A stretch of DNA of 64,000 nucleotides from positions 39,722 through 103,721 of the forward strand of contig CAVQPB010000004.1 of NCBI GenBank assembly GCA_963714525.1. Direction: 5' to 3'. The stretch is from an uncultured Pseudomonadota bacterium (lineage in GTDB: Bacteria > Pseudomonadota > Gammaproteobacteria > Burkholderiales > JALYOK01). Positions 5,946 through 27,147 of the stretch are shown here, in pieces. Each line of letters opens with the position of its first letter. The stretch's first letter is position 1. The notes beneath the pieces were generated by a model. It was not told the DNA's origin. It ran no database searches and was given only the letters and a program-made list of their open reading frames with translations. The translations under genes were made by a program, and so were the position numbers.

Positions 5946-7463
5946 TTAAAGTTTTTTCCAATCCTTAGCTTGTTCGAACGCATACGCGGCACGGTAGATC
6001 GTCGCTTCGTCGAAATGTTTGCCGATCAGCATCAACCCCACCGGCAAACCTTTGCTCATGCCGCATGGAATCGACATAGCGGGATGGCCGGTCGCATCGA
6101 ACGGCGCCGTGTTCGGTATCATTTCGAATGCGCGCGCGACGATCTCTTCGATGGCGGCGCCGGGTTTCGGTATGGGCGTGGCCTTCATCGGTAGCGTCGG
6201 CATCAGTAATAGATCGTATTTTCCCAGCGCCGTGTCGTAAGCGGCGCGCAATTTGCGCGACAGGTTTTGCGCTTTGCCGTAAAAGTGGCCACGATAGTGT
6301 TGGATGAAATATTCGCCGAGAATCATGGTTAGTTTGAGCGTGTGCGACAACTCATCGGCGCGCTCTTTCCAGCGGGCGTGATGATCGATCATGCTGGTGG
6401 CATACATGCCGCGCCAGTTGAAGCCGTGGCCGTTGTCTTTCATCATCTGCTGCGTGCCGCCCTCGGCGGCGATGGGCAGCCAGATCGCGAGGCCCATGGC
6501 ATGCATCGGGATCGACACTTCCTCGACTTTGGCGCCGAGCTTCGTCAACAGTTGCGAGCCGGCGCGCACTTTCTCATCGACATCTTTTTCTGAACTGGCG
6601 AGGCCGAATCCTTCTTTGACCACGCCTATCTTCAGGCCCTTTACGCCGTCCAACATTTTCTTGGAATACTCAATCGACTTGGCATTGGCGTATTGGCGCG
6701 GATCCAGACCGTCGGGCCCGGCGAGCACTTCGAGCGCCAACGCATTGTCGGTCACATTGGCGGTCATCGGGCCGGTGTGATCGATGGTGAGTTCGATCGG
6801 CATCACGCCGGTGTAAGGCACCAGACCGTGGGTTCCTTTCATGCCGTATATACCGCAATAGGAAGCAGGAATGCGGATCGAGCCGCCCTGATCGCCACCG
6901 ATGGCGATATCCACTTCGCCCGCTGCAACTAACGCGCCGCTACCGGACGACGAACCGCCGGCGGAGTAACCCATCTTATGGGGATTGTGCACCGGACCCG
7001 TCGCGCTGGTGTGAGAGCCGCCGGAAAAGCAAAAATATTCGCACACGGATTTACCGAGGATAGTCGCGCCCGCGTCGAGTAAGCGCGTTACCACGGTGGC
7101 GTCGATATCGGGGACGTAACCTTCAAACGTCGATGCCCCATTCATCATCGGCACACCGGCGACGCAGACGTTATCTTTGATCGCCACGGTCTTGCCCGCG
7201 AGCTTGCCCTTCGCCGCGCCTTTAATAGTCGATTTGTAGTACCACGCGGCGTATTTGTTCTCGTCGCCCTCGGGCCGGTAGCCGGGCGTGCGCGGATATT
7301 TGACCTGCGGTAAATAATCGGCAGCCGCATCGACCACGTCATAGGCATCGAAGTTGCCTTGCAACAAAGTGTTGTAGGTTTTGAGTTCCTCCGGCGATAG
7401 ATCGATGCCTAAACTTTGCGCGACGTCGTCGAGTTGCGTCAGGGTAGGGCGCTTTACAGCCAT
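5946..7463 (-). CDS. Amidase (amidase-signature family, NHase-associated)
   Basis: VAIKDN (catalytic Lys), GGSSSGS, GDQGGSIRIP. Last gene of the NHase operon. Confidence 0.92.
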   Translation of the reverse strand: MAVKRPTLTQLDDVAQSLGIDLSPEELKTYNTLLQGNFDAYDVVDAAADYLPQVKYPRTPGYRPEGDENKYAAWYYKSTIKGAAKGKLAGKTVAIKDNVCVAGVPMMNGASTFEGYVPDIDATVVTRLLDAGATILGKSVCEYFCFSGGSHTSATGPVHNPHKMGYSAGGSSSGSGALVAAGEVDIAIGGDQGGSIRIPASYCGIYGMKGTHGLVPYTGVMPIELTIDHTGPMTANVTDNALALEVLAGPDGLDPRQYANAKSIEYSKKMLDGVKGLKIGVVKEGFGLASSEKDVDEKVRAGSQLLTKLGAKVEEVSIPMHAMGLAIWLPIAAEGGTQQMMKDNGHGFNWRGMYATSMIDHHARWKERADELSHTLKLTMILGEYFIQHYRGHFYGKAQNLSRKLRAAYDTALGKYDLLLMPTLPMKATPIPKPGAAIEEIVARAFEMIPNTAPFDATGHPAMSIPCGMSKGLPVGLMLIGKHFDEATIYRAAYAFEQAKDWKKL

Positions 7464-7518
7464 GAAATATTTCTCCTTGTTAGTTCGAGATAACTTGGTG
7501 GCGAGTCAACACGACTGC

Positions 7519-7860
7519 TTACCGCAGTTGATGGGCGGAGCCTGCGATAGACATGGAAAATTTTCTTGCAGCGAGTTGATCGGGGGACGTGACACCCTTC
7601 GCGACCATGATGTTTTCAGCCGCGGCCAGCCACTGCTGATAGTAAGTTTTTGGCGCGCCGCCAATGGCCTCGACGGCGGTGGCGGCGGCAACTTCCTTGG
7701 AAAAACACTCGACCCATTCGCCCCAGGTAAAGTGCCCTGCATTAGCCAACTGCACGATGATGGCAAATGCGCGCGCTTCCCACGGCTCGTTAAACTTGAC
7801 TTCGTCGTCGGCCGCGAGCGGCAGCGATTTGCAGAGCAGCGGCGATTCGGTCGACGCCAT
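7519..7860 (-). CDS. Nitrile hydratase accessory protein (P14K/NhlE-like)
   Basis: FNEPWEARAFA, FTWGEW, YYQQWLAAAE. Directly downstream of the NHase beta genes. Confidence 0.85.
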   Translation of the reverse strand: MASTESPLLCKSLPLAADDEVKFNEPWEARAFAIIVQLANAGHFTWGEWVECFSKEVAAATAVEAIGGAPKTYYQQWLAAAENIMVAKGVTSPDQLAARKFSMSIAGSAHQLR

Positions 7861-7865
7861 TTTTC

Positions 7866-8216
7866 TTACTTCGCGGCGTCCATATAGTCGTCGAACACAT
7901 CGACACGCAAGGTATCGCGTTCCGATGCGTGCGGGCCCCACACTTCCCGCGCGGTAAAGCGCACACTGTAACAATGCTGCGGTTTTTCAGGTAAACCGTG
8001 GGCGTGGGTGTCGGGAAATGCGAACACGCCGTAGTCGGTTTCAATCGTGCCATGTTTGTCGCGCAAATAACCAGGCAACCGAATATGCGTGGTTGGATTG
8101 AGATTGCGAACGCGAATGCGATCGCCGACTTTAAACAGCGGTGCGACCTTGGCGTCGACGCGCGCGGACGCTCCCTGGGCGAGCAAGCCCGGCACAATTT
8201 CTGGCGTAAGTAACAT
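7866..8216 (-). CDS. nthB: Nitrile hydratase beta subunit, C-terminal SH3-like half (separate gene)
   Basis: FKVGDRIRV, HIRLPGYLR, FPDTHAHG, YSVRFTAREVWG. Own ATG preceded by AAGGGGG. Confidence 0.85.
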   Translation of the reverse strand: MLLTPEIVPGLLAQGASARVDAKVAPLFKVGDRIRVRNLNPTTHIRLPGYLRDKHGTIETDYGVFAFPDTHAHGLPEKPQHCYSVRFTAREVWGPHASERDTLRVDVFDDYMDAAK

Positions 8217-8217
8217 G

Positions 8218-8529
8218 TTAGTTTCCCCCTTTTGCCAGTTGCGCCATACGTACGTCCAGTTCTGCCTGCGTGACGATGCCGCGCTTCGCTAGTACGGTTT
8301 CAAACGCCGTAAGCCAATGTTCGTAGTACGACGACTCAAGATAATGGGCCGGCGGCATTTGCTCGATGGCGTGACGAAATTCATCGACGGTATAGCCGGC
8401 AAAAACAAAGGTCGAAGCGAACAACCCAAACGCGCGGCCTTCCCATTTTTCGTGAAACACCGGTTCGTTCTTTTCCGGATTAATTGGGCCCAGACCGTGC
8501 CTTCCACCCAGATCGTGCATTCCGTTCAT
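8218..8529 (-). CDS. nthB: Nitrile hydratase beta subunit, N-terminal helical half (separate gene)
   Basis: MNGMHDLGG, PVFHEKWE, DEFRHAIE, YYEHWL. GAGGAG RBS upstream. Confidence 0.88.
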   Translation of the reverse strand: MNGMHDLGGRHGLGPINPEKNEPVFHEKWEGRAFGLFASTFVFAGYTVDEFRHAIEQMPPAHYLESSYYEHWLTAFETVLAKRGIVTQAELDVRMAQLAKGGN

Positions 8530-8548
8530 ATTGAGCTCCTCGTCGAGA

Positions 8549-9148
8549 TTAGGGGGATTTGGCTTTGGTGACGCCGATCATAGAATCGCGCGTGACCAAA
8601 TCGGCCAGCTGTACCTCCGACATTTTTTCCGTGCCGGGCGGACGCTCCGGCAAAACCAAATAGCGCAATTCTGCCGTGCTGTCCCAAGTACACACTTCAA
8701 CGTTGTCGGGAATTTCCGTGCCGAATTCTTTCAACACCCCGCGCGGATCGGCGACGATGCGCGCGCGATAGGGCGCGGCTTTGTACCAGACCGGCGGCAA
8801 GCCCAACGTCGGCCACGGATAGCACGAGCATAGCGTGCAGACCAACACGTTATGAACCGAAGGTGTGTTCTCGACGACGACCATGTCTTCGCCTTGCAGG
8901 CCGGAGTAACCGAGTTCTTTGATCGCCGCGGTGGCGTCAGTCAACAAACGTTTCTTGTATTCCGGATCGACCCAAGCTTTAGCGACGACTTTCGCGCCGT
9001 TGCGCGGCCCTATCTTGTTTTCGTAAGTGTCGACCAAGGCGTCGAGCGCCTTCGGATCGATCAGCCCTTTTTCAGCGAGTATGGATTCCAGTGCCTTAAC
9101 CCTCAGCGCGGGATCCGACTCTCTTTTATCCGAGTGCGATGATGCCAT
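8549..9148 (-). CDS. nthA: Cobalt-type nitrile hydratase alpha subunit
   Basis: [10 protein letters not shown] Co-type metal-binding motif, [26 protein letters not shown] before MASSHS. Confidence 0.96.
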
Positions 9149-9440
9149 GACTGTTCCTTTCTTATTGAGCGCAGGCAATTCTTGCCGTGAGAAAGTGATA
9201 AACGCCGACCGCGAAGCTATATTTCGCGCGGTGCGCCACCTTTTAATATCGTACTGCAAATTCTTCTACTTGAAAACTGTTTAGTGCGGCGAGCTTTCCT
9301 AAGCTGATTGATGTCGATCACCGCAAGGTATAGGCTTCAAACAAATTGAACCGGCGCGCGAAACATATGTCTCAAAAATTTAACGCCGTAAGACTAGAAT
9401 TTTGTCATGGCTGAGGAGTTGTGTTGAGTGAGGGTTCGCG

Positions 9441-10746: not shown

Positions 10747-12255
10747 ATGCAGTCGGATTTAGACGCCAAACTCCAGAAACGCAAGCTTGATGCGCTGAAA
10801 CGCGGCATACACCGAGTTCGCGGTGACAGTTCTACCCCATTTTCTATTCATGTCGTAGGCCTAGGCAAAGCGGGCTGCGACGTGATTACTCAGATGTTGC
10901 GCGACATAGCGGCTTCGCATTTGGCCGACGATCGAGTTCGTATTACGGCGCTTGCGGTGGATATCGGCGACAGGGCACTTGCCCAGGTTCGAGACGTTGC
11001 TAGCACATTAAAGTCTGATAGGGTATTTGTCGAAACGTTTGCCCTCGATGTTCCTAGTCGGGCAGAACTGCAAGATAGCCTCCAGCGCCATCGCGACTTC
11101 TTGAAACTGGAGTACCCGCTTTATTATTTTAATCCCCATTACGAACCCTGGATTCCAAATGACGTAGTCGTTTCGCCTAACGACGGGCATTTTGATCGAG
11201 CCGTCGTGAAGGCGCTATATAGCCGCGCATACTACGATGGTGCGCGTCCTCTTGCTGCTTCGCTACGACGTTTCCGCGAAAGTGTCGAGACGACGTCACT
11301 GGATTCAATGGTTTGCATCGTCTTCGGTCTCGGAGGCGGTACCGGTAGCGCTGTCGCCACCGATCTAGCGCGGCATTTGTCGACCGTCGAATTCGGCCAT
11401 CGCGTGGTGGTAACCGGTATCGGTATCGCGCCCTGCGAAGGCGATGATCCTAAGCATCGATCGGGGGCCGTATTTCCAGTAATTTCTGAAATCGATTGTA
11501 TGCTGGACGAAACCAAGAACCGCGGCGTGGTAGCGGCGTTCGGCGATTTGTACCGTAATCCATATACCGGCGGTTTTATCATTGTTCCGCAGCAACCCAC
11601 TTGGCACGGAACTAAAGACCTTGCCGCGACCCACCAGCGCATAGATCGTGAGCTAGCGTCGCTCCTACTCGCGGACCACGGCGCGCAGTTGTGGGAAACC
11701 TTGCGTTTTCTCAATTGGGTTGCGGCTCCTTCGACCCAGCATTCGGCGGCGCGCACGCCTTACGGCCCGCAGTGGTTACATTTGTGGAATTTCGTAGATA
11801 CCGATAATAAAGGGAAGCTCACGACGACCGATTAGCCTAAAGCAGCTCGGCGTTCGCTCGAGCTATCAACCCGAGATCATCGAGTTGCGTTCGCCCGTTC
11901 CGGATGACCCGGAACTTACGACGATCGTGACGAGCATCGATCAATTCTTCAAGCCCGAGGCGAACACACTCATTCGCAAGGCGGCGTAAAGGGCTCGGTG
12001 CAGTTCATCTTGCCGCGTTTGCGCAAGACCGATCTCGACTTGTTTTTTGACGCGCAAGATGCTTACGACGCTCTGTCGAAAACGCAAAAATTGCTTGCGC
12101 ACGCTTGGCTTTTGGACCTTGGCATCATGCTCTGTGAACCCGGCGCCCATCTGGAAGGCATGGCCGGCGCCGGTCTATGGAGTAGCGACAGTTGGGTCGC
12201 TGTGCCATACGACGCGATTCGGATCGCCGAGGAACCACGCAAGGCGGCCGCGTAG
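10747..12255 (+). CDS. Tubulin/FtsZ-signature protein, putative beta subunit of an atypical (AnhB-like) nitrile hydratase; two compensating frameshifts
   Basis: VVGLGKAG and FGLGGGTGS motifs; collinear paralog of 12773-14461. Frame 1 stops at 11835, frame 2 carries ISLKQLGVRSSYQPEIIELR, frame 1 resumes by about 11975. About 502 codons if repaired. Confidence 0.65.
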
Positions 12256-12334: not shown

Positions 12335-12661
12335 ATGCCCCTTGATTGGTCGGTGGTTAAATCGAAATATGGGACGGGCTTCAAAGTGCCGACGGTAGCC
12401 GGAGGCAAGTTTCTTAAGGTTGCACGTGCCGATGATGAAGCGATCTACATCGAATCTCCGATCTGGAGCGCGGTGTTGCGCCGAGCCGATCTTGAAAAGG
12501 CGGTCGAGTTGATCGAAACGGGCACTATTTCCCGCGATCCCGGATTGTTCGTCGAAGATTACATGCTCTATGTATCGAATACGCGCGCGACATCGGTCGC
12601 GCATATTTTGCGCGATCTTGGTTTTCTCGATCAGACCGAGACGTTTTCGATTAGGTGTTGA
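12335..12661 (+). CDS. 108-aa protein between the two tubulin-like paralogs; putative AnhE-like metallochaperone
   Basis: GGAG RBS before ATG 12335 (MPLDWSVVKSKYG). Function inferred from position and size only. Confidence 0.6.
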   Translation: MPLDWSVVKSKYGTGFKVPTVAGGKFLKVARADDEAIYIESPIWSAVLRRADLEKAVELIETGTISRDPGLFVEDYMLYVSNTRATSVAHILRDLGFLDQTETFSIRC

Positions 12662-12772: not shown

Positions 12773-14461
12773 ATGAGTGGATCTATCTATCACAGCGCAA
12801 CTGGCGCCCAGTCGCCCCACTGTATGCACGCCATCGGCATCGGCCGCACTGGCATGGTCTACATCGAGGCGCTGCTGCGCACCGGTGAAATCGAGGATTT
12901 GCTGGCTGATCCGCGCGCGACTTTCGCGGCGATGGTGGTCGATATCGGCGATCAAGACATGGGTATCGTTACCGATTATGCTAACTCGTTCAAAAAGCGC
13001 CTCGAATCGCGCGGCATCCCAATCGAGCGCTTTCAATTCCAGGCAATCGCATTGCCGGTGCCGGCCAAGGACGAATTCTTCGAGGGCATGAACCGTACCC
13101 GCGAGTGGTTAAAGTTAGAGTATCCGCGCTATTACTGGAACCCGAACTTCGAGTCCTATGTGCCGCACAAGTACGAGCTTCCGAAGGCCGGCAACCATTT
13201 CCCGCGCGCGGTGGCCAAGGGCATCTATGCCAACGCCTATTACGCCGGCGACCGCCCCATGGATTTAGCGTTACGCAAGTTCGTTGACCAGGTCGAGAAG
13301 GCGACGCTGCCGTCGATGGTAACGGTGTGCTTCAGCTTGGCGGGCGGCACCGGCAGCGGCATCGTGGTTGACCTGGCGCGGCACTTGTCCAACGTCAAGC
13401 TCGGCCGGCGCATCCCGGTCATCGGTGTCGGCCAGTTGTCCTCCAGTGGGGATCCAGACACCTATCATAACAACCCCACGATGTATACCACGCTCAATGA
13501 CCTTGACTGCATGCTTGACGACGATAAGAACGCCGGCGTTACCGCGGTGTGGGGCGACCTGTATCGCAGCCCGTTCACCGGCGGCTTCTTCGTGGTCAAC
13601 CCCGAGCAGAGTTGGCAACGCCTGACCGCCTACACCACCACCGGCGAGAAAGAGATCCGCCAAGGCTTCAAGGAGATGGTGACCAATCGCTTCGTCGCCG
13701 ATTCGTTCATGCGCTTCGCGGTGCTGGAGAACGGACGCGTGCTGTTCAGAGCGATGCGCCCGGCGGGATTCACCGGTGCGCCGCACGAGACGCTATCGGC
13801 CAAGTCACGCAACTGGACACTATTCGATGTCGCTAAGCTGAGTCACCCTGGTGTGCAGGTGCTGCCGGGCGAAGCGGGCTCAAAGTGGGATTCGGTTCTG
13901 GCGCAATGGATCGATTTCGTGCCCAAGTACAGCGGACTGAAAGATGGTTTCAAGACCGACTACGCCGAAGTGCATGTTCACGCCTCACGTGACATGGGCT
14001 TCGACATGCTCGATAAAGCCTTTAAAGATATGGTTACTAAGCAGTACCTGCTTGACGGGGACTCGACCTACCAGGGCTACCACCATGAGTTCTTCGATGC
14101 GCTGACCGCGTATGGGAATATTATTCTTCCGGGCGTCGCCAAGACCGACTTGACTGCCTTCTGGGAAAGCCAGAAGAACTACGACAAACTGACTTGGGAA
14201 GAAAAACTGAACGAGCACGCCTGGTTGATCGACATCGGCCCCATGCTGTCCGAACCTGCGATCCGTTTCGAAGGCATGGCCGGTGAGTGCATCTGGGGTT
14301 GCGCGTGTTGGGTAGTCGTGCCCTACGATCAATTGCGGGGCGACAAGTTACCACCGCCTAACCGCAAGGTGATCATGGAAGAAGGTATTGCCATGATGAC
14401 CAAGACCGTAGTTAAGACGCCTGGTGGCGATGCTAAGAAGCCTGCCAAGGCGCACGCTTAG
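12773..14461 (+). CDS. Tubulin/FtsZ-signature protein with C-terminal CIWGCAC motif, putative alpha (metal-binding) subunit of an atypical (AnhA-like) nitrile hydratase
   Basis: Strong RBS AAGGAGGT. AIGIGRTG, FSLAGGTGSG, Cys cluster at 14288-14308. 562 aa. Confidence 0.7.
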   Translation: MSGSIYHSATGAQSPHCMHAIGIGRTGMVYIEALLRTGEIEDLLADPRATFAAMVVDIGDQDMGIVTDYANSFKKRLESRGIPIERFQFQAIALPVPAKDEFFEGMNRTREWLKLEYPRYYWNPNFESYVPHKYELPKAGNHFPRAVAKGIYANAYYAGDRPMDLALRKFVDQVEKATLPSMVTVCFSLAGGTGSGIVVDLARHLSNVKLGRRIPVIGVGQLSSSGDPDTYHNNPTMYTTLNDLDCMLDDDKNAGVTAVWGDLYRSPFTGGFFVVNPEQSWQRLTAYTTTGEKEIRQGFKEMVTNRFVADSFMRFAVLENGRVLFRAMRPAGFTGAPHETLSAKSRNWTLFDVAKLSHPGVQVLPGEAGSKWDSVLAQWIDFVPKYSGLKDGFKTDYAEVHVHASRDMGFDMLDKAFKDMVTKQYLLDGDSTYQGYHHEFFDALTAYGNIILPGVAKTDLTAFWESQKNYDKLTWEEKLNEHAWLIDIGPMLSEPAIRFEGMAGECIWGCACWVVVPYDQLRGDKLPPPNRKVIMEEGIAMMTKTVVKTPGGDAKKPAKAHA

Positions 14462-14639: not shown

Positions 14640-15455
14640 ATGGACGATAGAATTCGCCCTTACCTAATCGAGCAGCAACCCTACTACCAAGCGGCGGGCA
14701 AGGAAATCGCGCTATTCAGCGCCGCCTTTGCGCGGCGCCTGCCGATGATACTGAAAGGTCCGACGGGCTGCGGCAAAACGCGGTTTGTCGAACATATGGC
14801 GTGGCGTCTAAAGCTGCCGTTGATCACGCTGGCCTGCAACGAAGACATGACGGCATCGGACTTGGTGGGGCGTTACCTGCTGGACACCGACGGCACCGTT
14901 TGGCATGACGGCCCGCTGACGTTGGCTGCGCGCTACGGCGCGATCTGCTACCTGGACGAAGTCGTCGAGGCGCGCCAGGACACCAACGTGATCATCCATC
15001 CGCTTACCGACGAGCGGCGTATCCTGCCCCTCGACAAACGCGGCGAACTCGTCAAAGCCCACGCGGACTTTCATCTGGTGGTGTCTTACAACCCCGGCTA
15101 TCAAAGTGCCGCCAAGGATCTCAAACAGTCCACCAAACAACGTTTCGGCGCCATCGACTTCGACTACCCACCGACCGACATTGAAACCAGTATCGTCGCC
15201 CACGAGAGCGGTGTCGCAGCGGACCTCGCTGCAAAACTGGTGGGCATCGCGCATCAGTCGCGCGCACTATGCGGGCGAGGGTTGGAGGAGGGCATCTCCA
15301 CCCGAATGCTGATCCACGCTGGCGGACTCATCGCCGACAACATAGCCGCACATGACGCCTGCCGACTGGCGATGACCACTCCGCTCACGGACGATAAGGA
15401 TTTGCTCGGCGCCCTAGACGGCTTTGTCGAAAACTATTTTGGACCGGCGCCATGA
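14640..15455 (+). CDS. cbbQ: CbbQ/NirQ/NorQ family AAA+ ATPase (copy 1)
   Basis: [46 protein letters not shown]. Confidence 0.9.
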   Translation: MDDRIRPYLIEQQPYYQAAGKEIALFSAAFARRLPMILKGPTGCGKTRFVEHMAWRLKLPLITLACNEDMTASDLVGRYLLDTDGTVWHDGPLTLAARYGAICYLDEVVEARQDTNVIIHPLTDERRILPLDKRGELVKAHADFHLVVSYNPGYQSAAKDLKQSTKQRFGAIDFDYPPTDIETSIVAHESGVAADLAAKLVGIAHQSRALCGRGLEEGISTRMLIHAGGLIADNIAAHDACRLAMTTPLTDDKDLLGALDGFVENYFGPAP

Positions 15456-17455
15456 TTACCGACGACGTGGCGCTACGGTTGCAAGTGTTACGCAACAACG
15501 ATCGCCCGGCGCACGAGGCGCTAGTGCAAGTCATGACCGATCTGAACGGACATTTCAGCGGACAACTCAATAAGGCGGCTCTGATCGATTTGCTGTGCCA
15601 AATCAGCGTGGAATCGCCCCCATCCGCCGTCGCGCTGATCGATAGGCTCACTTCGTTACCCATCGAGCTAGATGTGATGACCTTACGCAAGTGGGCGTTT
15701 CACGGCTTGCAGCGTTATCGCAGCGAACCGGCTAAACGCCTAAGGCATTTTGAGGTCGACGATCCATTCGCCTTCGCCGACCGTGAGGCCGAGATCGATA
15801 GCGAACACCTGCTCGCCAGGCGTGAGGAATTACTACACTATTTGGCCGGCTTCGGGTTCTCCAATTTGCGGCTTGAGTTACAGGAACCTTCCCCTATCGG
15901 CGCCTTCGCGCAAGGCCCGGCGATAGGCGATGACCTGCTGCTTTTCCCTCGACGCTTCGGCGCTAATGTATCTAATAGGCGCGAGCTGCTATATCGCGCC
16001 GTCGCTGCGCACGCCGCGGCGCACTTACAGTTCTCCCCGCGAGCTCGGCTTGCGGGTAATCGGCAGCCGATGCTGATCGCGATTATGTCGCTGATTGAAG
16101 ATGCCCGTGTGGAGCGGCTCCTGGCGCAGCGCTACCCCGGTCTAGGCGCGTTGTGGGGGCTGTTCCACGTTGCTACCCGGACTAGCGCTGGTTTTGATTT
16201 CGCCGGATTGGCTGCACGCCTTGCCCATGCGGTACACGATCCCGATTACGTCGATAGCAACTCGTGGGTGATGAAGGGCCGCCAACTGTTTGAGGAGGCC
16301 GCGCACGATTTGCACGACATCACCGCATTCGACAAGGTCGCTCGTTTGTTAGCGATCGATATCGAGAAAATGCGCTTGGCGTTCAAAGCGAGCGCCTATC
16401 GGGTCGAGCCGATTTATCGCGACGATAATTCCCTGTTGTGGAATTTCAATCCTCCCGCGACTGTGGATGAGACGGAAACGGTGATGCGCGAGAAATTCGA
16501 ACTCAAGCCGCTGGAATTGAATGAACAGCAAATGCAAAACCTGCACCGAGTCGAAGTCGACCAACGCCGTCGCACGCACTACCCGGAGTGGGATTGCAAG
16601 CTCGAAGCCGTGCGCGAGAACTGGGCGACCGTCATCGAAACTGAATCCGCGGCGAAACCGGGAACAACTCGTAGATCTTCGCGCGCCATTTCCCATGCCG
16701 GCATTCGCTTTAAAGGACTGGAACGTATTCCTGATCGATCGCTCCGCCTCAATCGTTTAGAGGAAGGCGACGAGCTCGACTTGAACGCCGCCGTGGACAG
16801 CATGGTGTCGCGCCGGAGCCGCGCAATCCCGGATTCGCGCATCTTCCGGCGTCATGGCCGGCGCCGCCGCTCCACCGCAATCGTGTTATTGATGGACTTG
16901 TCGGCCTCCACCCAACGCTTCGTGCCCGGGAGTTTCACCAGTGTGCTCGACGTCGAAAAACGTGCCGCGACGTTGGTGGCTGAATCGCTGGATCCATCCC
17001 GCGACCGGGTGGCGGTGCATGGCTTTTCGTCCAACGGCCGGCAAGAAGTGAATTACGTCTGTATTAAAGATTTCGATGAATCGTTCGGGCTCGAGCAAAA
17101 AAGGCTTTTGCACCGGCAGGAAGGGCGTCTGTCGACCCGCATGGGCGCCGCGTTGCGGCACGCGAGCCTTGCTCTTGGTCGCGAGGAGGCGGACCACAAG
17201 GTCATCTTGTTGCTTACCGATGGCGAGCCTTCGGATATCGATGTGTTCGAGGAAGACTATCTGGTCGAAGATACCCGCCACGCCGTGACCACTGCCGCCG
17301 CCCGGGGCATCAAAACTTTCTGCCTAACTCTAGACCGGCACGCCGACGCCTATGTGCGCCGTATCTTCGGTATGCGCAATTACATGATCGCCGACAAGGC
17401 CGACGCATTTGCGGGCAGCACCGGCCAGGCGCTGGTGAAATTGATCGCCCATTGA
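15452..17455 (+). CDS. CbbO/NorD-like VWA-domain adaptor (copy 1)
   Basis: EDARVE, YPEWD, MIDAS DLSAS, STRMGAALRHA, TDGEPSDID. ATGA overlap with cbbQ. Confidence 0.88.
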   Translation: MITDDVALRLQVLRNNDRPAHEALVQVMTDLNGHFSGQLNKAALIDLLCQISVESPPSAVALIDRLTSLPIELDVMTLRKWAFHGLQRYRSEPAKRLRHFEVDDPFAFADREAEIDSEHLLARREELLHYLAGFGFSNLRLELQEPSPIGAFAQGPAIGDDLLLFPRRFGANVSNRRELLYRAVAAHAAAHLQFSPRARLAGNRQPMLIAIMSLIEDARVERLLAQRYPGLGALWGLFHVATRTSAGFDFAGLAARLAHAVHDPDYVDSNSWVMKGRQLFEEAAHDLHDITAFDKVARLLAIDIEKMRLAFKASAYRVEPIYRDDNSLLWNFNPPATVDETETVMREKFELKPLELNEQQMQNLHRVEVDQRRRTHYPEWDCKLEAVRENWATVIETESAAKPGTTRRSSRAISHAGIRFKGLERIPDRSLRLNRLEEGDELDLNAAVDSMVSRRSRAIPDSRIFRRHGRRRRSTAIVLLMDLSASTQRFVPGSFTSVLDVEKRAATLVAESLDPSRDRVAVHGFSSNGRQEVNYVCIKDFDESFGLEQKRLLHRQEGRLSTRMGAALRHASLALGREEADHKVILLLTDGEPSDIDVFEEDYLVEDTRHAVTTAAARGIKTFCLTLDRHADAYVRRIFGMRNYMIADKADAFAGSTGQALVKLIAH

Positions 17456-17499: not shown

Positions 17500-17982
17500 A
17501 TGTCTATCAAACCAGGAGATCAAGTTCCCGCCGCGACCTTCAAGCAGCTTACTGCTAGCGGCATGGCGAATATCGACACAGGCAAATTGCTAAAAGGAAG
17601 AAGGGTTGTGTTGTTCGGCCTGCCCGGGGCTTACACGCCCGTCTGCTCAGCTAGTCACTTGCCGGGATTCGTGGCGAGAGCCGCCGAGCTAAAATCCCAG
17701 GGCGTCGACGAGATCGTGTGCGTCTCAGTCAATGACCCATTCGTGATGCACGCTTGGGGAAAGGAACATGGCGCCGACGGCAAAGTAACCATGTTGGCGG
17801 ATGCCGACGGTGCATTCACCCGCGCCATGGGACTGAGCCTGGATCTGCCGGATTTTGGATTGAGCGGGCGCTCAGAACGCTACTCGATGGTGGTCGACAA
17901 CGGCGTGGTGAAGAACATCAACGTCGAAAAGAGTGTACTCGACCATGGTGTTAGTAGTGCTACTTCTTGTATGATTAGTTGA
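17500..17982 (+). CDS. Peroxiredoxin (Prx5/type II)
   Basis: PGAYTPVCSASHLPGF, SVNDPFVM, RSERY. Confidence 0.92.
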   Translation: MSIKPGDQVPAATFKQLTASGMANIDTGKLLKGRRVVLFGLPGAYTPVCSASHLPGFVARAAELKSQGVDEIVCVSVNDPFVMHAWGKEHGADGKVTMLADADGAFTRAMGLSLDLPDFGLSGRSERYSMVVDNGVVKNINVEKSVLDHGVSSATSCMIS

Positions 17983-18003: not shown

Positions 18004-18993
18004 ATGGCCGAGCAACCGAAAAGCGATGTGCGAATTCCCGTGACGGTGATCACGGGTTTTCTCGGATCGGGTAAAACCACGCTGCTGAACCATATTTTGA
18101 GTCAGCAGCATGGCCGCAGAATCGCTGTCATCGTCAATGAGTTCGGCGAGGTGGGGATCGACGGTCAACTCATCGTCAAAGACGATGACGAACAGTTAGT
18201 CGAATTCAACAATGGCTGTTTGTGCTGCACCGTGCGCGGCGATCTCATCGAAACCATCGATAAGCTGCGCTCCCGTGCGGGGCAGCTCGACGCGATCCTG
18301 ATCGAGACGACGGGTTTGGCGGATCCTGCCCCGGTCGCATCGGTATTTTTTGTCTCGGATAAAGTCAGGGCGGGTGTGCGGCTCGATTCCTTCGTCACGG
18401 TGGTGGATGCGGTCAATCTGGAACAGAACTTGAGCCAGAATCATGAGGCCTATGAGCAAGTCACGTTCGCCGATATCACGCTGATCAACAAGACGGACTT
18501 GGTTTCCAAAGAGGATTTGCAGCGCGTCGAAGCGCGTATCCGCGCCCTCAATCCGCTGACTCGCATCTACTATACGGCGCACGGCGTGGTCGATTTGGCA
18601 AACATTCTCGACGTCGGCGCCTTCGAACTCGAAGCCAAGCTCGAAGTCGATCCGAAGTTCCTGGATGACTTGGAGCACGAACACGATCCTGAAATCGGTT
18701 CCATCGTGCTGCGAGAAGATAGGCCCATCGACGTCAATCGGTTCATGACCTGGATGACCTCGATCTTGCAAGAACAGGGCGAGGATCTGTTCCGTAGTAA
18801 AGGTGTATTTTATGCGCAGGGATTTCGCGAGCGGGTTATTTTTCAGAGCGTGCGCATGTTAACGTCCATGCGTCCATTCAAGCTGTGGCAAGCCGACGAA
18901 ATAAAGCGTAGCGAGTTTGTCATGATTGGGCGGAAGTTGAATCGTGAAAAACTAGCCGAGGGTTTAGCAAGCTGCGTCGCGCGCACCCACTAG
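18004..18993 (+). CDS. COG0523/CobW-family metallochaperone GTPase
   Basis: TGFLGSGKTT, NEFGE, GCLCC, ETTGLADP, NKTD, short His patch HEHD. Confidence 0.92.
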   Translation: MAEQPKSDVRIPVTVITGFLGSGKTTLLNHILSQQHGRRIAVIVNEFGEVGIDGQLIVKDDDEQLVEFNNGCLCCTVRGDLIETIDKLRSRAGQLDAILIETTGLADPAPVASVFFVSDKVRAGVRLDSFVTVVDAVNLEQNLSQNHEAYEQVTFADITLINKTDLVSKEDLQRVEARIRALNPLTRIYYTAHGVVDLANILDVGAFELEAKLEVDPKFLDDLEHEHDPEIGSIVLREDRPIDVNRFMTWMTSILQEQGEDLFRSKGVFYAQGFRERVIFQSVRMLTSMRPFKLWQADEIKRSEFVMIGRKLNREKLAEGLASCVARTH

Positions 18994-19073
18994 GGGACGT
19001 GCGAAGTGATCTTAACGATGTTTTTGGTTTAGTTGTTGAACTGTCATTCACTTTACAAAAGGAGATCAGCATC

Positions 19074-19292
19074 ATGACTACGCAATCAACCCATAACACC
19101 ATCGCCACAACCCCCAGTTTGGCGGGTAGCGATTTACTGGTTCACGGCGCTGCCATCGGCAGCAAATGGCCGGCATTGTTCGCCGTCATCCTGGGTGCGG
19201 TTGTACTTTTCGGCGTCGGTTTTTCGAACCTCAGCGTGAGCCACAACGCTGCTCACGATACTCGCCATGCCATGGTTTTTCCATGCCATTAA
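19074..19292 (+). CDS. cbtB: Cobalt transporter subunit CbtB
   Basis: Single TM helix and C-terminal HNAAHDTRHAMVFPCH. AGGAG RBS. Confidence 0.88.
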   Translation: MTTQSTHNTIATTPSLAGSDLLVHGAAIGSKWPALFAVILGAVVLFGVGFSNLSVSHNAAHDTRHAMVFPCH

Positions 19293-20041
19293 GCGGACAG
19301 CGATCTTTCCGGCACATCGTGTTGTCCGCGGTGATTGCCGGATTGATCACCGGCGTGTTGATCACGTTGGTGCAGATGTTCACCACCGTGCCACTCATCG
19401 CCCAAGCGGAAGTGTATGAGCAAGGCGGTGTAAAACCCGAAGCCGTTGCGCCGGTCGCCAAAGATGCGGTCGATGCGGCGCACGACCATGATGCTCATGA
19501 TCATGGGGCGGAATCCTGGGCGCCGAAAGATGGGTTTGAGCGCACGTTTTATACCGCGCTTACGTCCGTCCTAGTTGCGATTGGCTACGCTCTGCTCCTG
19601 GGAGCTTGTTTTTCGCAAATGCGATCGGTCGGCTGGCGCACCGGGTTGGCGCTCGGCGTCGCTGGGTTTCTGGTGTTTCAACTTGCGCCGGCGCTCGGGC
19701 TTCCTCCGCAACCGCCAGGATCACCTTATGCCGATCTGGTGGCGCGGCAACTATGGTGGGTAGGCACTGCGGTGGCAACCGCGTTGGGATTGGGCGCTTG
19801 GTTTTATGCTCGTACACACTCGAAGGCATTGTGGATACCGGTCGGCATTGTGTTGATCTTGCTTCCCCATGTCATCGGTGCGCCGCAGCCCGTCGAAGGC
19901 CAGGTTGCTATCTTGCCCAAAGAGCTATCGCAACGCTTTGCGTTGTTGGCGTTATTCACGGCCGCTGTTTTCTGGATCGTGCTGGGAAGCCTGCAAGGCT
20001 ATGTGTTCGGCAGGCTGGGTCGGCGTCAGGCGCCCGGTTAG
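19283..20041 (+). CDS. cbtA: Cobalt transporter subunit CbtA
   Basis: PLIAQAEVYE, His patch HDHDAHDH, WAPKDGFER, LGLPPQPPG, RQLWW, PHVIGAP. Confidence 0.9.
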   Translation: MPLSGQRSFRHIVLSAVIAGLITGVLITLVQMFTTVPLIAQAEVYEQGGVKPEAVAPVAKDAVDAAHDHDAHDHGAESWAPKDGFERTFYTALTSVLVAIGYALLLGACFSQMRSVGWRTGLALGVAGFLVFQLAPALGLPPQPPGSPYADLVARQLWWVGTAVATALGLGAWFYARTHSKALWIPVGIVLILLPHVIGAPQPVEGQVAILPKELSQRFALLALFTAAVFWIVLGSLQGYVFGRLGRRQAPG

Positions 20042-20044
20042 CGA

Positions 20045-20395
20045 ATGGAGAGAAAACCGGACGACCCGCCGCTCGTTTACGACGCGCACATTTTTTGTTG
20101 TATTAACGAGCGGCCGCCCGGTCACCTAAGGGGATGCTGTGGCAGCAAGGGCGCTAGACGGCTTTGCGACTACATGTGCCGCCGGGCGATGGCCACCGGA
20201 CTGGGGCACAGAGTTCGAGCGAATTTAGCAGGATGTTTGAACCAGTGTGAGTTTGGTCCGACCATGGTGATCTATCCCGAAGGCGTTTGGTATACCTATA
20301 ACAATGAGGACGACATAGACGAAATATTAACGCGCCACGTGATCAGGGGTGAGCGCGTCGATAGGTTGCTGCTGCACCCTGATCAATCGAAGTAA
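20045..20395 (+). CDS. Thioredoxin-like [2Fe-2S] ferredoxin
   Basis: HIFCCINER...GCC...GCLNQC, GPTMVIYPEGVWY. Confidence 0.88.
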   Translation: MERKPDDPPLVYDAHIFCCINERPPGHLRGCCGSKGARRLCDYMCRRAMATGLGHRVRANLAGCLNQCEFGPTMVIYPEGVWYTYNNEDDIDEILTRHVIRGERVDRLLLHPDQSK

Positions 20396-25305: not shown

Positions 25306-25977
25306 CTAATTTGATCGCGGTTTAGTCTGCTTATCGAGAAAATCCACCTCACGAACCACCGTGCTCGGCTTGGCTTTGAATCCCAAAATCTCATTGGCAT
25401 TGATAATGGCAGTGGCGATCTCTTCAGTGGTCACGCGCTTACTCATGGCCTGATCGCGAATAATTTCATAGGCTTGATCTTCCGAGATGCCTCGAGTTTG
25501 CATGAGTATGCCCTTGGCCTTGGTGAGCCGGCGGATGCCGTTGAGCCGCTGCTCGAAGCGCTCGATTTGTTTCGCTTGTTCGCGTTCCTTGGCGGCGAGT
25601 TGCCGGGCGATCACCATCGAGGTTAACAGGCCAAAGGATTTCACCGGCGAGGCCAACACACCGTGGGCATTGACCCTGATAACCGCTTCGACGACGGTCG
25701 GATTTTCGTAGTTGACTACGACGATAAGCGGCGGCGTAGGTTCGGTTTTAAGCCACGAATAATCCTGATCGATCACTTCGGGACGAACGGCAAGGAATAC
25801 CAGATCGACCTCATCCGGAAGTTTATCCAGCGGCGGCCAAAAGGCTTTAACTTGACAGCCGATGCGCTGCAGTTGGCGAATGATTTCCTCGCCGTCGTGA
25901 TCGCTCGGGTGAAACACCATCACCCGCAACGAGCGCAAGTTGCGTAACAGTCGAGAGGTGCCGGACATGGGTTTCAT
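25306..25977 (-). CDS. amiR: ANTAR-domain antiterminator AmiR
   Basis: Pseudo-receiver (QLQRIGCQV, YENPT) plus ANTAR (KAKGILM, SEDQAYEIIRDQAMSKR). Paired with amiC. Confidence 0.9.
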   Translation of the reverse strand: MKPMSGTSRLLRNLRSLRVMVFHPSDHDGEEIIRQLQRIGCQVKAFWPPLDKLPDEVDLVFLAVRPEVIDQDYSWLKTEPTPPLIVVVNYENPTVVEAVIRVNAHGVLASPVKSFGLLTSMVIARQLAAKEREQAKQIERFEQRLNGIRRLTKAKGILMQTRGISEDQAYEIIRDQAMSKRVTTEEIATAIINANEILGFKAKPSTVVREVDFLDKQTKPRSN

Positions 25978-26007: not shown

Positions 26008-27147
26008 TCACACCCGCGCCGACCAATCTTCCAAAGAATGCTCGACCAGGTAGGGATCCGGCTTCACCGGCTGCTTTGCTTCGTGCAGAATATCAAATTG
26101 GCCGTCATTGCGCACGCGGCCTATGCGCGGCGTCAGGTACGCATGGTGATTTTCCGCGTCGATTTTAACCATGCCCTGGGGCGCCATGAATTCCATGCCC
26201 AGCAACGCTGGGACCAATTGTTGAACATTATCTGTACCGGCAGCCGATAGACCGGCGGCGAGCAAATAGGTTTGAAAATACGCCGCTTCCCAGCACATAT
26301 TGGTGATGGTGTCGGAGCCGAAGCGTTGGCGAAGTTTAGTCACGCAACGTTGATTGGCATCGCTATCGATGGATTGAAAATAGGTGGCCGCGGTGATGTG
26401 GCCCGTGGCAACACCGGCGCCCATTTGTCGTACTTCGGTTTCCGAAGTCGTGAGGCTGGCGATCGGCATGGCTGCCGGGTCCAGCCCGATTTCGGCATAG
26501 GCGCGATAAAACGCGCCGGTCGCTTGGCCGACCACGGTTGAAAAGATAAAATCCGGCCGCTTGTTTTTAATGTCCTTCAGCACCTCTAAAAAATCTTCCG
26601 GGCCCGCGTTGAGCTTGAGGTAGCGCTCCCCGGTTTTTTCGCCGCCGCGCTCAAGTAACAGGTCGCTCATAATGCGATTCGATTCGTACGGATAGATGTA
26701 ATCCGAACCGACCATGTACACGCGCGAGCCAAACTCCCGCATCATGTATTCGGCGAGCTGCACGCTGTTTTGGTTGGGAGCGGCGCCGGTATAAATGACG
26801 TTGCGAGAATATTCGAAGCCTTCGTAGAGCGTGGGGTAAAACAGTAATCCGTTCCAGCGTTCCACCACCGGCAGCACCGCCTTGCGCTCGCTCGACATGT
26901 AGCACCCGAGGATGATGCGAACGCCATCGTCGACCATGAGCTTCTCGGCAAGTGTCTTATAGGTGCCCGGTGATGATCCGGGATCATAGTAGACCGGCTG
27001 TAATTCCCGTCCATCTACACCACCGGCGGCATTGATCTCGTCGAACGCGAGTAACGTTCCTTGCAGTTGAGACGATTCTATATCGGAGGTAACCCCGGTT
27101 TTTGAAAAGAGGATGCCCACTCGCAGCGGAGCATTATGTTTATTCAT
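26008..27147 (-). CDS. amiC: Amide sensor AmiC (cytoplasmic periplasmic-binding-protein fold)
   Basis: No signal peptide. GILFSKTGVT, GCYMSSERK, YPTLYEGFE, GAAPNQN, GSDYIYPYESN. Confidence 0.9.
   Translation of the reverse strand: MNKHNAPLRVGILFSKTGVTSDIESSQLQGTLLAFDEINAAGGVDGRELQPVYYDPGSSPGTYKTLAEKLMVDDGVRIILGCYMSSERKAVLPVVERWNGLLFYPTLYEGFEYSRNVIYTGAAPNQNSVQLAEYMMREFGSRVYMVGSDYIYPYESNRIMSDLLLERGGEKTGERYLKLNAGPEDFLEVLKDIKNKRPDFIFSTVVGQATGAFYRAYAEIGLDPAAMPIASLTTSETEVRQMGAGVATGHITAATYFQSIDSDANQRCVTKLRQRFGSDTITNMCWEAAYFQTYLLAAGLSAAGTDNVQQLVPALLGMEFMAPQGMVKIDAENHHAYLTPRIGRVRNDGQFDILHEAKQPVKPDPYLVEHSLEDWSARV

Follow-up and report, generated by a model that had tools for sequence, protein, structure and literature searches.

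Nitrile hydratases (NHases) are industrial catalysts and a textbook case of non-corrin cobalt and low-spin iron chemistry, in which the metal is bound through oxidised cysteine ligands. In the classical enzymes these oxidised cysteines form a claw of the type C-[ST]-L-C-S-C. A second type, acetonitrile hydratase (ANHase), has been known biochemically since 2007, and reviews treat it as just another cobalt NHase. Here, we analyse a locus of this second type in a stretch of 64,000 nucleotides (the window, meaning this whole stretch) from an uncultured gammaproteobacterium of the order Burkholderiales (GenBank assembly GCA_963714525.1, contig CAVQPB010000004.1, positions 39,722 to 103,721), and focus on two paralogous large genes, which we call g1 and g2, and on a cysteine motif, CIWGCAC, that g2 carries and g1 does not. 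Following this motif through relatives, we found that it has been lost from opposite subunits in different lineages, and this reciprocal loss is our main new result. The core of the locus, in window positions, is as follows:

10747–12255, forward strand: g1, orthologue of the upstream ANHase large subunit (AnhA position) by tree and BLASTP, Cys-free and interrupted.
12172–12192, forward strand: GLWSSDS, the degenerate counterpart of the motif in g1, from the reading of the bases and the alignment.
12335–12661, forward strand: AnhE homologue of 108 amino acids between g1 and g2 (ATG at 12335; the listed open reading frame (ORF) starts at TTG 12302).
12773–14461, forward strand: g2, orthologue of the downstream ANHase large subunit (AnhB position), intact, 562 amino acids, carrying the Cys motif.
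14288–14308, forward strand: C506-I-W-G-C510-A-C512, the candidate metal-binding cysteine claw of g2.

The closest described system is the ANHase of Rhodococcus jostii RHA1, which is a cobalt NHase with the gene order alpha–AnhE–beta, AnhE being a metallochaperone (PMC3511329, PMC7193024). In the passages of later accounts that treat it, the functional enzyme contains 1 Co, 2 Cu and 1 Zn (PMC3766881, citing Okamoto & Eltis 2007), and cobalt insertion into alpha subunits is aided by activators (PMC7329996, citing Okamoto 2010). In a tblastn search against plasmids, g2 is 48.4% identical, with 99% coverage, to positions 165221–166936 of the RHA1 plasmid pRHL2, where the annotated order is an aliphatic amidase, a 514-residue ‘tubulin-like’ gene, a 99-residue gene, a 568-residue gene and a nickel/cobalt transporter. 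The 99-residue RHA1 protein, AnhE, is 37% identical to the window’s AnhE across 99 residues (E value 9e-27), and the two loci further share a paralogous pair of large subunits around AnhE, a linked amidase, an AmiC-type binding protein, a Co/Ni transporter and the sequence GEC..GCAC. With a pair of paralogous large subunits that are homologues of the two in RHA1 (by tblastn and by the tree described below) and an anhE-like small gene between them, the locus probably encodes an ANHase-type NHase, for which we infer both activity and cobalt content. One of its two large subunits is not intact: in this assembly, an in-frame TAG and two indels that compensate each other interrupt g1. Because the ANHase family is already known (2007/2010), this is not a new kind of enzyme.

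No structural paper on acetonitrile hydratase turned up in the literature searched, which covered sources other than the primary ANHase papers and their supplements; in the same literature we found no link of ANHase to tubulin or FtsZ and the metal ligands are not named. The residue-level assignment of the site and the swap of subunits between lineages that we present appear to be unreported there.

Compared with classical NHases, the ANHase type of the window likely performs the same reaction (nitrile to amide) and shares three cysteines ending in C-x-C, a small activator or metallochaperone, cobalt-supply genes and, presumably, the division into one catalytic and one non-catalytic large subunit. 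Unlike them, it has no sequence similarity to the classical chains, adopts another fold and has subunits that are paralogues of each other. The two claws differ as well, as C-I-W-G-C-A-C has one residue more between the first and the second cysteine than the classical pattern allows and shares only the terminal C-x-C with it.

The motif of g2 is encoded by the codons tgc atc tgg ggt tgc gcg tgt and stands in the sequence FEGMAGE-CIWGCAC-WVVVPYD, to which the sequence LEGMAGA-GLWSSDS-WVAVPYD of g1 corresponds. BLASTP of the 562-residue g2 against the ORF at 11998–12255 gives 37 identities in 74 positions with 0 gaps (E value 5e-24), and the N-terminal parts of g1 and g2 are likewise paralogous (36% identity across 339 residues, E value 6e-73). 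The pairing of motif and counterpart is far above chance, and the same ungapped alignment bears out an earlier, sequence-only reading of the window, which had proposed that CIWGCAC aligns to GLWSSDS without gaps and that all three cysteines are lost between conserved flanks. That reading had also seen CTLCSC in the window’s classical NHase alpha, and the residues are indeed there (VCTLCSC, 8549–9259, reverse strand). Its picture of a paralogue without cysteines stands in part: GLWSSDS is present, but as the tail of an interrupted gene.

Conservation across homologues was one of the checks that this reading had named. Starting from 118 confirmed relatives in a species-genome collection, we retained 80 loci, and C[ILF]WGCAC is found in 76 of the 76 g2 orthologues in which the place of the motif is covered (44 CIWGCAC, 16 CFWGCAC and 16 CLWGCAC), the remaining four loci ending before it. 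More distant representatives of the family retain GEC..GC.C despite diverged flanks, with A, V or T within the C-x-C.

At the corresponding place, g1 is Cys-free and Gly/Ser-rich in most loci. The arrangement is swapped in RHA1, R. rhodochrous and R. qingshengii (three plasmids), where the upstream gene has FEGVGGE-CLLGCAC-WVVVPH and the downstream gene is without the motif; that is, Rhodococcus keeps the motif upstream and has lost it downstream, whereas the window’s clade keeps it downstream and has lost it upstream. In 16 of the 80 loci, mostly from metagenome-assembled genomes (MAGs) of sponge symbionts, Arenicellales and other gammaproteobacteria, both genes carry it. The sequence-only reading had assigned the roles of catalytic alpha and structural beta to the two chains, an arrangement that fits the window’s clade only, given the swap in Rhodococcus and the 16 loci with the motif in both chains, and the putative structural beta of the window is itself interrupted in this assembly. 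For RHA1, the abstract of Okamoto et al. from 2010 is said to describe more cobalt in AnhA when it is produced with AnhE; if AnhA is the upstream gene, the reportedly cobalt-bearing subunit of that enzyme is the motif-bearing one.

To place these changes, we inferred a tree of 55 rows (a quick LG+G4 run) from both large genes and any third paralogue of 21 of the 80 loci, chosen for spread (the other 59 left out), together with the window and the three Rhodococcus pairs. The split between g1 and g2 has 100% support, each Rhodococcus gene falls on the side of its positional counterpart, and the Cys-free g1 rows form a single clade of 14 rows (99%). A recent gene conversion that copied the motif from one gene to the other is ruled out, as the motif blocks of g1 and g2 in four two-site loci share only 9–15 of 23 third-codon positions and the flank (residues 441–498) is 52% identical between the genes of two-site loci. 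Because third-codon positions and flank have diverged to this extent, the shared motif reflects selection on an ancestral feature. The simplest history suggested by these sequences would be a two-site ancestor followed by at least two independent losses, in g1 of the proteobacterial crown and in g2 of Rhodococcus. Such reciprocal decay would be a natural experiment on the origin of pseudo-enzyme partner subunits, with a parallel in alpha/beta-tubulin.

Some loci hold, in addition, a third, shorter tubulin-like paralogue without the Cys motif, which is nested in the g2 group (among others L017:12664-14085, L035:12599-14026, L033:13340-14962, L038:13621-15273 and L068:12235-13500). None was found in the window’s own genome.

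If each chain built its own site from the Cys claw and an aromatic and polar pocket, and decayed as a unit, then losses of the cysteines should be accompanied by losses at the same other positions in both lineages. We compared full-length rows of four classes (75 Cys-bearing g2, 18 Cys-bearing g1, 55 Cys-free g1 and 3 Cys-free Rhodococcus g2), dropping rows shorter than 490 residues or without the region. Of 87 positions that are invariant and identical in both Cys-bearing classes, Cys-free g1 has lost 19 and Rhodococcus g2 has lost 23; 13 positions are common to the two sets, against 5.0 expected (p 1.3e-5), namely F103, R110, Y121, N125, F315, W475, D487, E505, C506, C510, A511, C512 and V515. 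The excess persists outside residues 499–516 (7 against 2.6 expected, p 0.002), and the union of losses highlights the loop R119-Y-Y-W-N-P-N125. Copies that look catalytic never vary at the three cysteines, and the partner copy has lost these together with defined other residues, as the proposed role of the motif would have it. This pattern fits one Cys-based active site per chain with a degenerate partner subunit, and yields a hypothesis that can be tested at the level of residues: two independent natural ‘knock-outs’ single out three cysteines and about ten residues of the pocket.

Rates of change point the same way. Mean pairwise identity in the one-site clade is 53% for g1 and 78% for g2, compared to 65% and 79% in the two-site clade, so that g1 appears to evolve faster where it is without a site, consistent with decay as a unit. 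A separate observation concerns W260, which is invariant in Cys-bearing copies; a cysteine takes its place in 91% of the 55 Cys-free g1 sequences (VWGDLY to SCGELF), which by comparison of the sequences would be a conserved cysteine gained in the ‘scaffold’ chain.

The fold on which the motif stands is predicted with good confidence. An AlphaFold2 model of g2 (alignment A1, 71 rows) reaches a predicted local distance difference test (pLDDT) score of 88.3 and a predicted template modelling (pTM) score of 0.90, and Foldseek and VIA-align match it to CetZ, FtsZ, tubulin, BtubA and TubZ, with Z scores of 19–22 for CetZ, FtsZ and tubulin. Examples are CetZ1 (4b46; Z 21.7, rmsd 4.7, 322 aligned residues), FtsZ (2vxy; Z 20.5, rmsd 4.2, 297 aligned) and BtubA (2btq; Z 19.2, rmsd 4.2, 382 aligned), and by this model g2 has the two-domain tubulin/FtsZ fold. 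At the sequence level, Pfam gives only weak Tubulin and Tubulin_2 matches, and a search of the Protein Data Bank (PDB) returned only marginal tubulin matches (E value 0.16 or worse), so there is no solved relative by sequence. The sequence-only reading had placed the motif on a fold unrelated to that of classical NHases, and this is what we see: besides the tubulin/FtsZ matches, neither g1 nor g2 has an NHase match in Pfam or NCBIfam, and g2 shows no similarity to the window’s own NHase alpha (best BLASTP E value 1.1).

The likeness to tubulin, FtsZ and CetZ (including BtubA/B and alpha/beta-tubulin) extends over the whole chain and to the T1 and T4 loops, whose signatures (GxGxxG and GGTGSG) are retained in all four classes of copies, and nucleotide binding is probably retained with them. 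As in alpha/beta-tubulin, two paralogues would pair into a heterodimer, one of them having degenerated in function. What sets the ANHase-type chains apart from the tubulin superfamily is a C-terminal extension with the cysteine claw, together with an enzymatic context: the FtsZ core of g2 ends near residue 455, and the motif (506–512) lies within the extension (about 456–545).

This context is rich in genes of amide and cobalt metabolism. We counted neighbours with BLAST in those 57 loci that span 16 kb or more, and give these counts with the features of the window that lie downstream of g2:

14640–15455, forward strand: CbbQ/NorQ-type AAA+ ATPase (AAA_5, CbbQ_C; listed start GTG 14424, likely start near 14640), 30 of 57 loci.
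15452–17455, forward strand: VWA-domain partner of the AAA+ ATPase, 667 amino acids, NorD/CbbO-like architecture, 26 of 57.
17500–17982, forward strand: peroxiredoxin (Redoxin/AhpC-TSA), 36 of 57.
18004–18993, forward strand: CobW/COG0523-type metallochaperone GTPase, 54 of 57.
18999–20041, forward strand: CbtB (18999–19292) and CbtA (19166–20041), putative cobalt transporter subunits.
20042–20389, forward strand: small Cys-rich conserved ORF with several CC and CxxC pairs (tblastn with homologues from loci L003 and L069), 47 of 57.
25306–25977, reverse strand: AmiR (ANTAR), 27 of 57.
26008–27147, reverse strand: AmiC-like amide sensor, 34 of 57.

The CbbQ/NorQ and VWA genes, which follow g2 directly in the window, occur together in 25 of the 57 large loci and have the architecture of the activases of Rubisco and NO reductase. 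The Cys-rich ORF, directly after CbtA and without a Pfam match, may likewise have a part in maturation or redox chemistry. A NicO or CbtA/B transporter and a CN_hydrolase amidase are each found in 27 of the 57, a DUF255 thioredoxin-like gene in 8 and a classical NHase alpha in 6. The Rhodococcus loci are flanked by cobalt ECF transporters. CobW, CbbQ/VWA, the peroxiredoxin and the Cys-rich ORF of the proteobacterial loci have no annotated counterpart in the 19.7-kb RHA1 stretch.

AnhE stands between g1 and g2 in 76 of the 80 loci. The window’s copy has no Pfam or NCBIfam match, and all 40 of its aligned proteobacterial homologues (alignment A3) have both His90 and the C-terminal Cys108. The proteobacterial proteins carry a 9-residue tail ending in this cysteine, which RHA1 AnhE does not have and whose cysteine is possibly a ligand in metal handover. 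A predicted complex of g2 with AnhE (alignments A1 and A3) scored a median of 0.56 (runs 0.56, 0.76 and 0.54; best of three controls 0.00), with at least 82% of contacts agreeing between runs and a partner pLDDT of at least 85. For comparison, 58 of 80 solved complexes reached the mark, as did 2 of 110 mismatched pairs, but only 7 of the 80 reached it with a score of 0.60 or lower, which is where both mismatched pairs fall; the verdict is weak support, and we do not use the prediction as evidence.

From the homology, the fold, the conservation, the reciprocal and correlated losses and the cobalt-related context described above, we estimate a probability of about 0.6 that the locus encodes an ANHase-type heterodimer of tubulin fold in which G-E-C-x-W-G-C-A-C of g2 is the active-site metal claw, descended by reciprocal loss from an ancestor with two sites. 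Cobalt would be brought to the Cys-bearing chain by AnhE, with CobW and perhaps CbbQ/VWA, and be held as low-spin, non-corrin Co(III) by the thiolates of C506, C510 and C512 and probably by backbone amides of C-A-C, for which C-S-C of classical NHase and C-G-C of acetyl-CoA synthase are models. An aromatic and polar pocket of the same chain (R110, the R119-N125 loop, F315, W475, D487 and E505) would complete the site, and the linked peroxiredoxin may serve cysteine oxidation. The ancestor would have had the site in both paralogues, later descendants keeping it in g2 only in the window’s clade and in g1 (AnhA) only in Rhodococcus, and the chain without a site would have become a faster-evolving scaffold. 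The 1 Co per RHA1 enzyme fits the single Cys motif per heterodimer there.

A fuller version of this proposal is more tentative, and we place it a little below even odds. It holds that an NHase-like claw evolved convergently on a tubulin/FtsZ heterodimer, binds non-corrin cobalt with probably oxidised cysteines, was present twice per ancestral dimer and decayed reciprocally, to g2-only in most Proteobacteria and g1-only in Rhodococcus, with the two-site state in the sponge-symbiont and gammaproteobacterial clade, and that the nucleotide pocket is now a structural or regulatory cofactor site. If so, the ANHase type would be a case of convergent evolution, with the same metal claw on an unrelated fold.

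Of the other explanations, the one that survives best, though we consider it unlikely, is that the three cysteines form a structural or auxiliary Cu, Zn or Fe-S site and that the catalytic cobalt sits on other residues. Thiolate-rich sites commonly bind Cu(I) or Zn, and there are other conserved His and Cys residues (H204, C246 and H482); H204 and C246, however, are also present in the Cys-free chains, and so do not track the putative catalytic chain. The metals listed for the RHA1 enzyme cut both ways, as 2 Cu and 1 Zn are reported in it (PMC3766881), but it is the 1 Co that matches one motif per heterodimer, and the 2 Cu do not. One would also not expect a purely structural site to be lost along with an aromatic and polar pocket in two independent lineages, or every one-site heterodimer to do without it in one of its chains.

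Clearly less probable is a redox or regulatory element, such as a disulfide or sulfenate switch, in which the cysteines would not be metal ligands. It could draw on the peroxiredoxin (36 of 57) and the DUF255 thioredoxin-like gene (8 of 57), yet the peroxiredoxin is equally compatible with oxidation of the cysteines of a metal claw, and the invariant G-E-C-x-W-G-C-A-C block and the co-located CobW, AnhE and cobalt transporter genes point to metal insertion instead. Very improbable, finally, is a pair of tubulin-like GTPases of cytoskeletal or segregation type whose motif has no enzymatic role, which the complete tubulin/FtsZ fold, the retained T1 and T4 signatures and the database label ‘tubulin-like’ would suit, but against which stand the Rhodococcus orthologues, described as subunits of a purified NHase (PMC3511329, PMC7193024, PMC3766881), a genomic context consistently of amide and cobalt metabolism, and no match in phage records.

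Several points weigh against the cobalt-claw reading that we prefer. That the three cysteines and the co-lost residues lie together in space is a prediction from sequence. Folded alone, residues 436–552 of g2 give a poor model (pLDDT 65.1, pTM 0.44), with which a wide VIA search found nothing above Z 4.2 and only short helix hairpins. The Rhodococcus Cys-free class has only 3 sequences, and the equation of AnhA with the upstream gene relies on the gene order given in secondary sources. The spacing is C-x3-C-x-C rather than the C-x2-C-x-C of classical NHase. A site of three cysteines suits Cu(I) or Zn equally well, which makes both metals rivals to the cobalt that we infer at the motif, and the RHA1 enzyme is described as containing 2 Cu and 1 Zn beside its 1 Co (PMC3766881). 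Moreover, g1 is broken in the assembly, so that this strain may not assemble the heterodimer.

The interruption of g1, which in relatives is a single ORF of about 500–530 amino acids, can be followed base by base. Frame 1 runs from 10747 to 11835 and ends at the TAG at 11833–11835; about 150 nucleotides (about 11834–11986) are then readable in the next frame only, and frame 1 resumes from about 11990 to 12255. Against its closest relatives (L003, L054 and L007), g1 of the window carries an insertion of one base near 11832 and a deletion of one base near 11972. The extra base at 11832 is absent from contigs that are 95–99% alike in all four of four sequencing runs (four studies), and a base additional to the window follows 11972/11973 in three of these runs, the contig of the fourth ending there in a loose end. 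The whole genome has the locus in the same sequence as the window and has no other locus of the family. None of the sequencing runs listed for the locus was of RNA. g1 is thus either a very recent pseudogene or a mis-assembled gene; if the two indels are genuine, this strain may have no active enzyme. In L003, the nearest relative by genome, the g2 ORF ends early (L003:7980-9700; ORF at 7980–9398) and the motif stands at the expected place in another frame, which suggests a frameshift in that MAG as well.

A classical Co-type NHase cluster adjoins the ANHase locus:

5946–9259, reverse strand: classical Co-type NHase cluster as a whole.
5946–7463, reverse strand: amidase.
7519–7974, reverse strand: activator-like gene.
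8549–9259, reverse strand: NHase alpha with VCTLCSC (PF02979).

Its beta subunit lies in two ORFs in different frames (NHase_beta_N at 8218–8529 and NHase_beta_C at 7866–8216, both on the reverse strand), joined at ...AAAAGGGGGAAACTAACATG..., which could reflect a homopolymer frameshift or a naturally split beta; the latter is reported for Streptomyces canus (PMC7329996). Together with the broken g1, the split beta prompts the question whether the assembly contains indels or the nitrile genes of this genome are decaying.

Across databases, the family goes largely under another name. A search of 5.8 billion proteins found 938 relatives of g2, and the best 120 all share 77% identity or more with it; those that carry a name are labelled ‘hypothetical’ or ‘tubulin-like’. 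This is a warning for annotation, as ‘tubulin-like’ proteins beside amidase and cobalt genes are probably enzymes. The clusters returned from the ESM Atlas are likewise all ‘tubulin-like’, and an exhaustive search of representatives at 50% identity yielded only 184 clusters, so the family is small.

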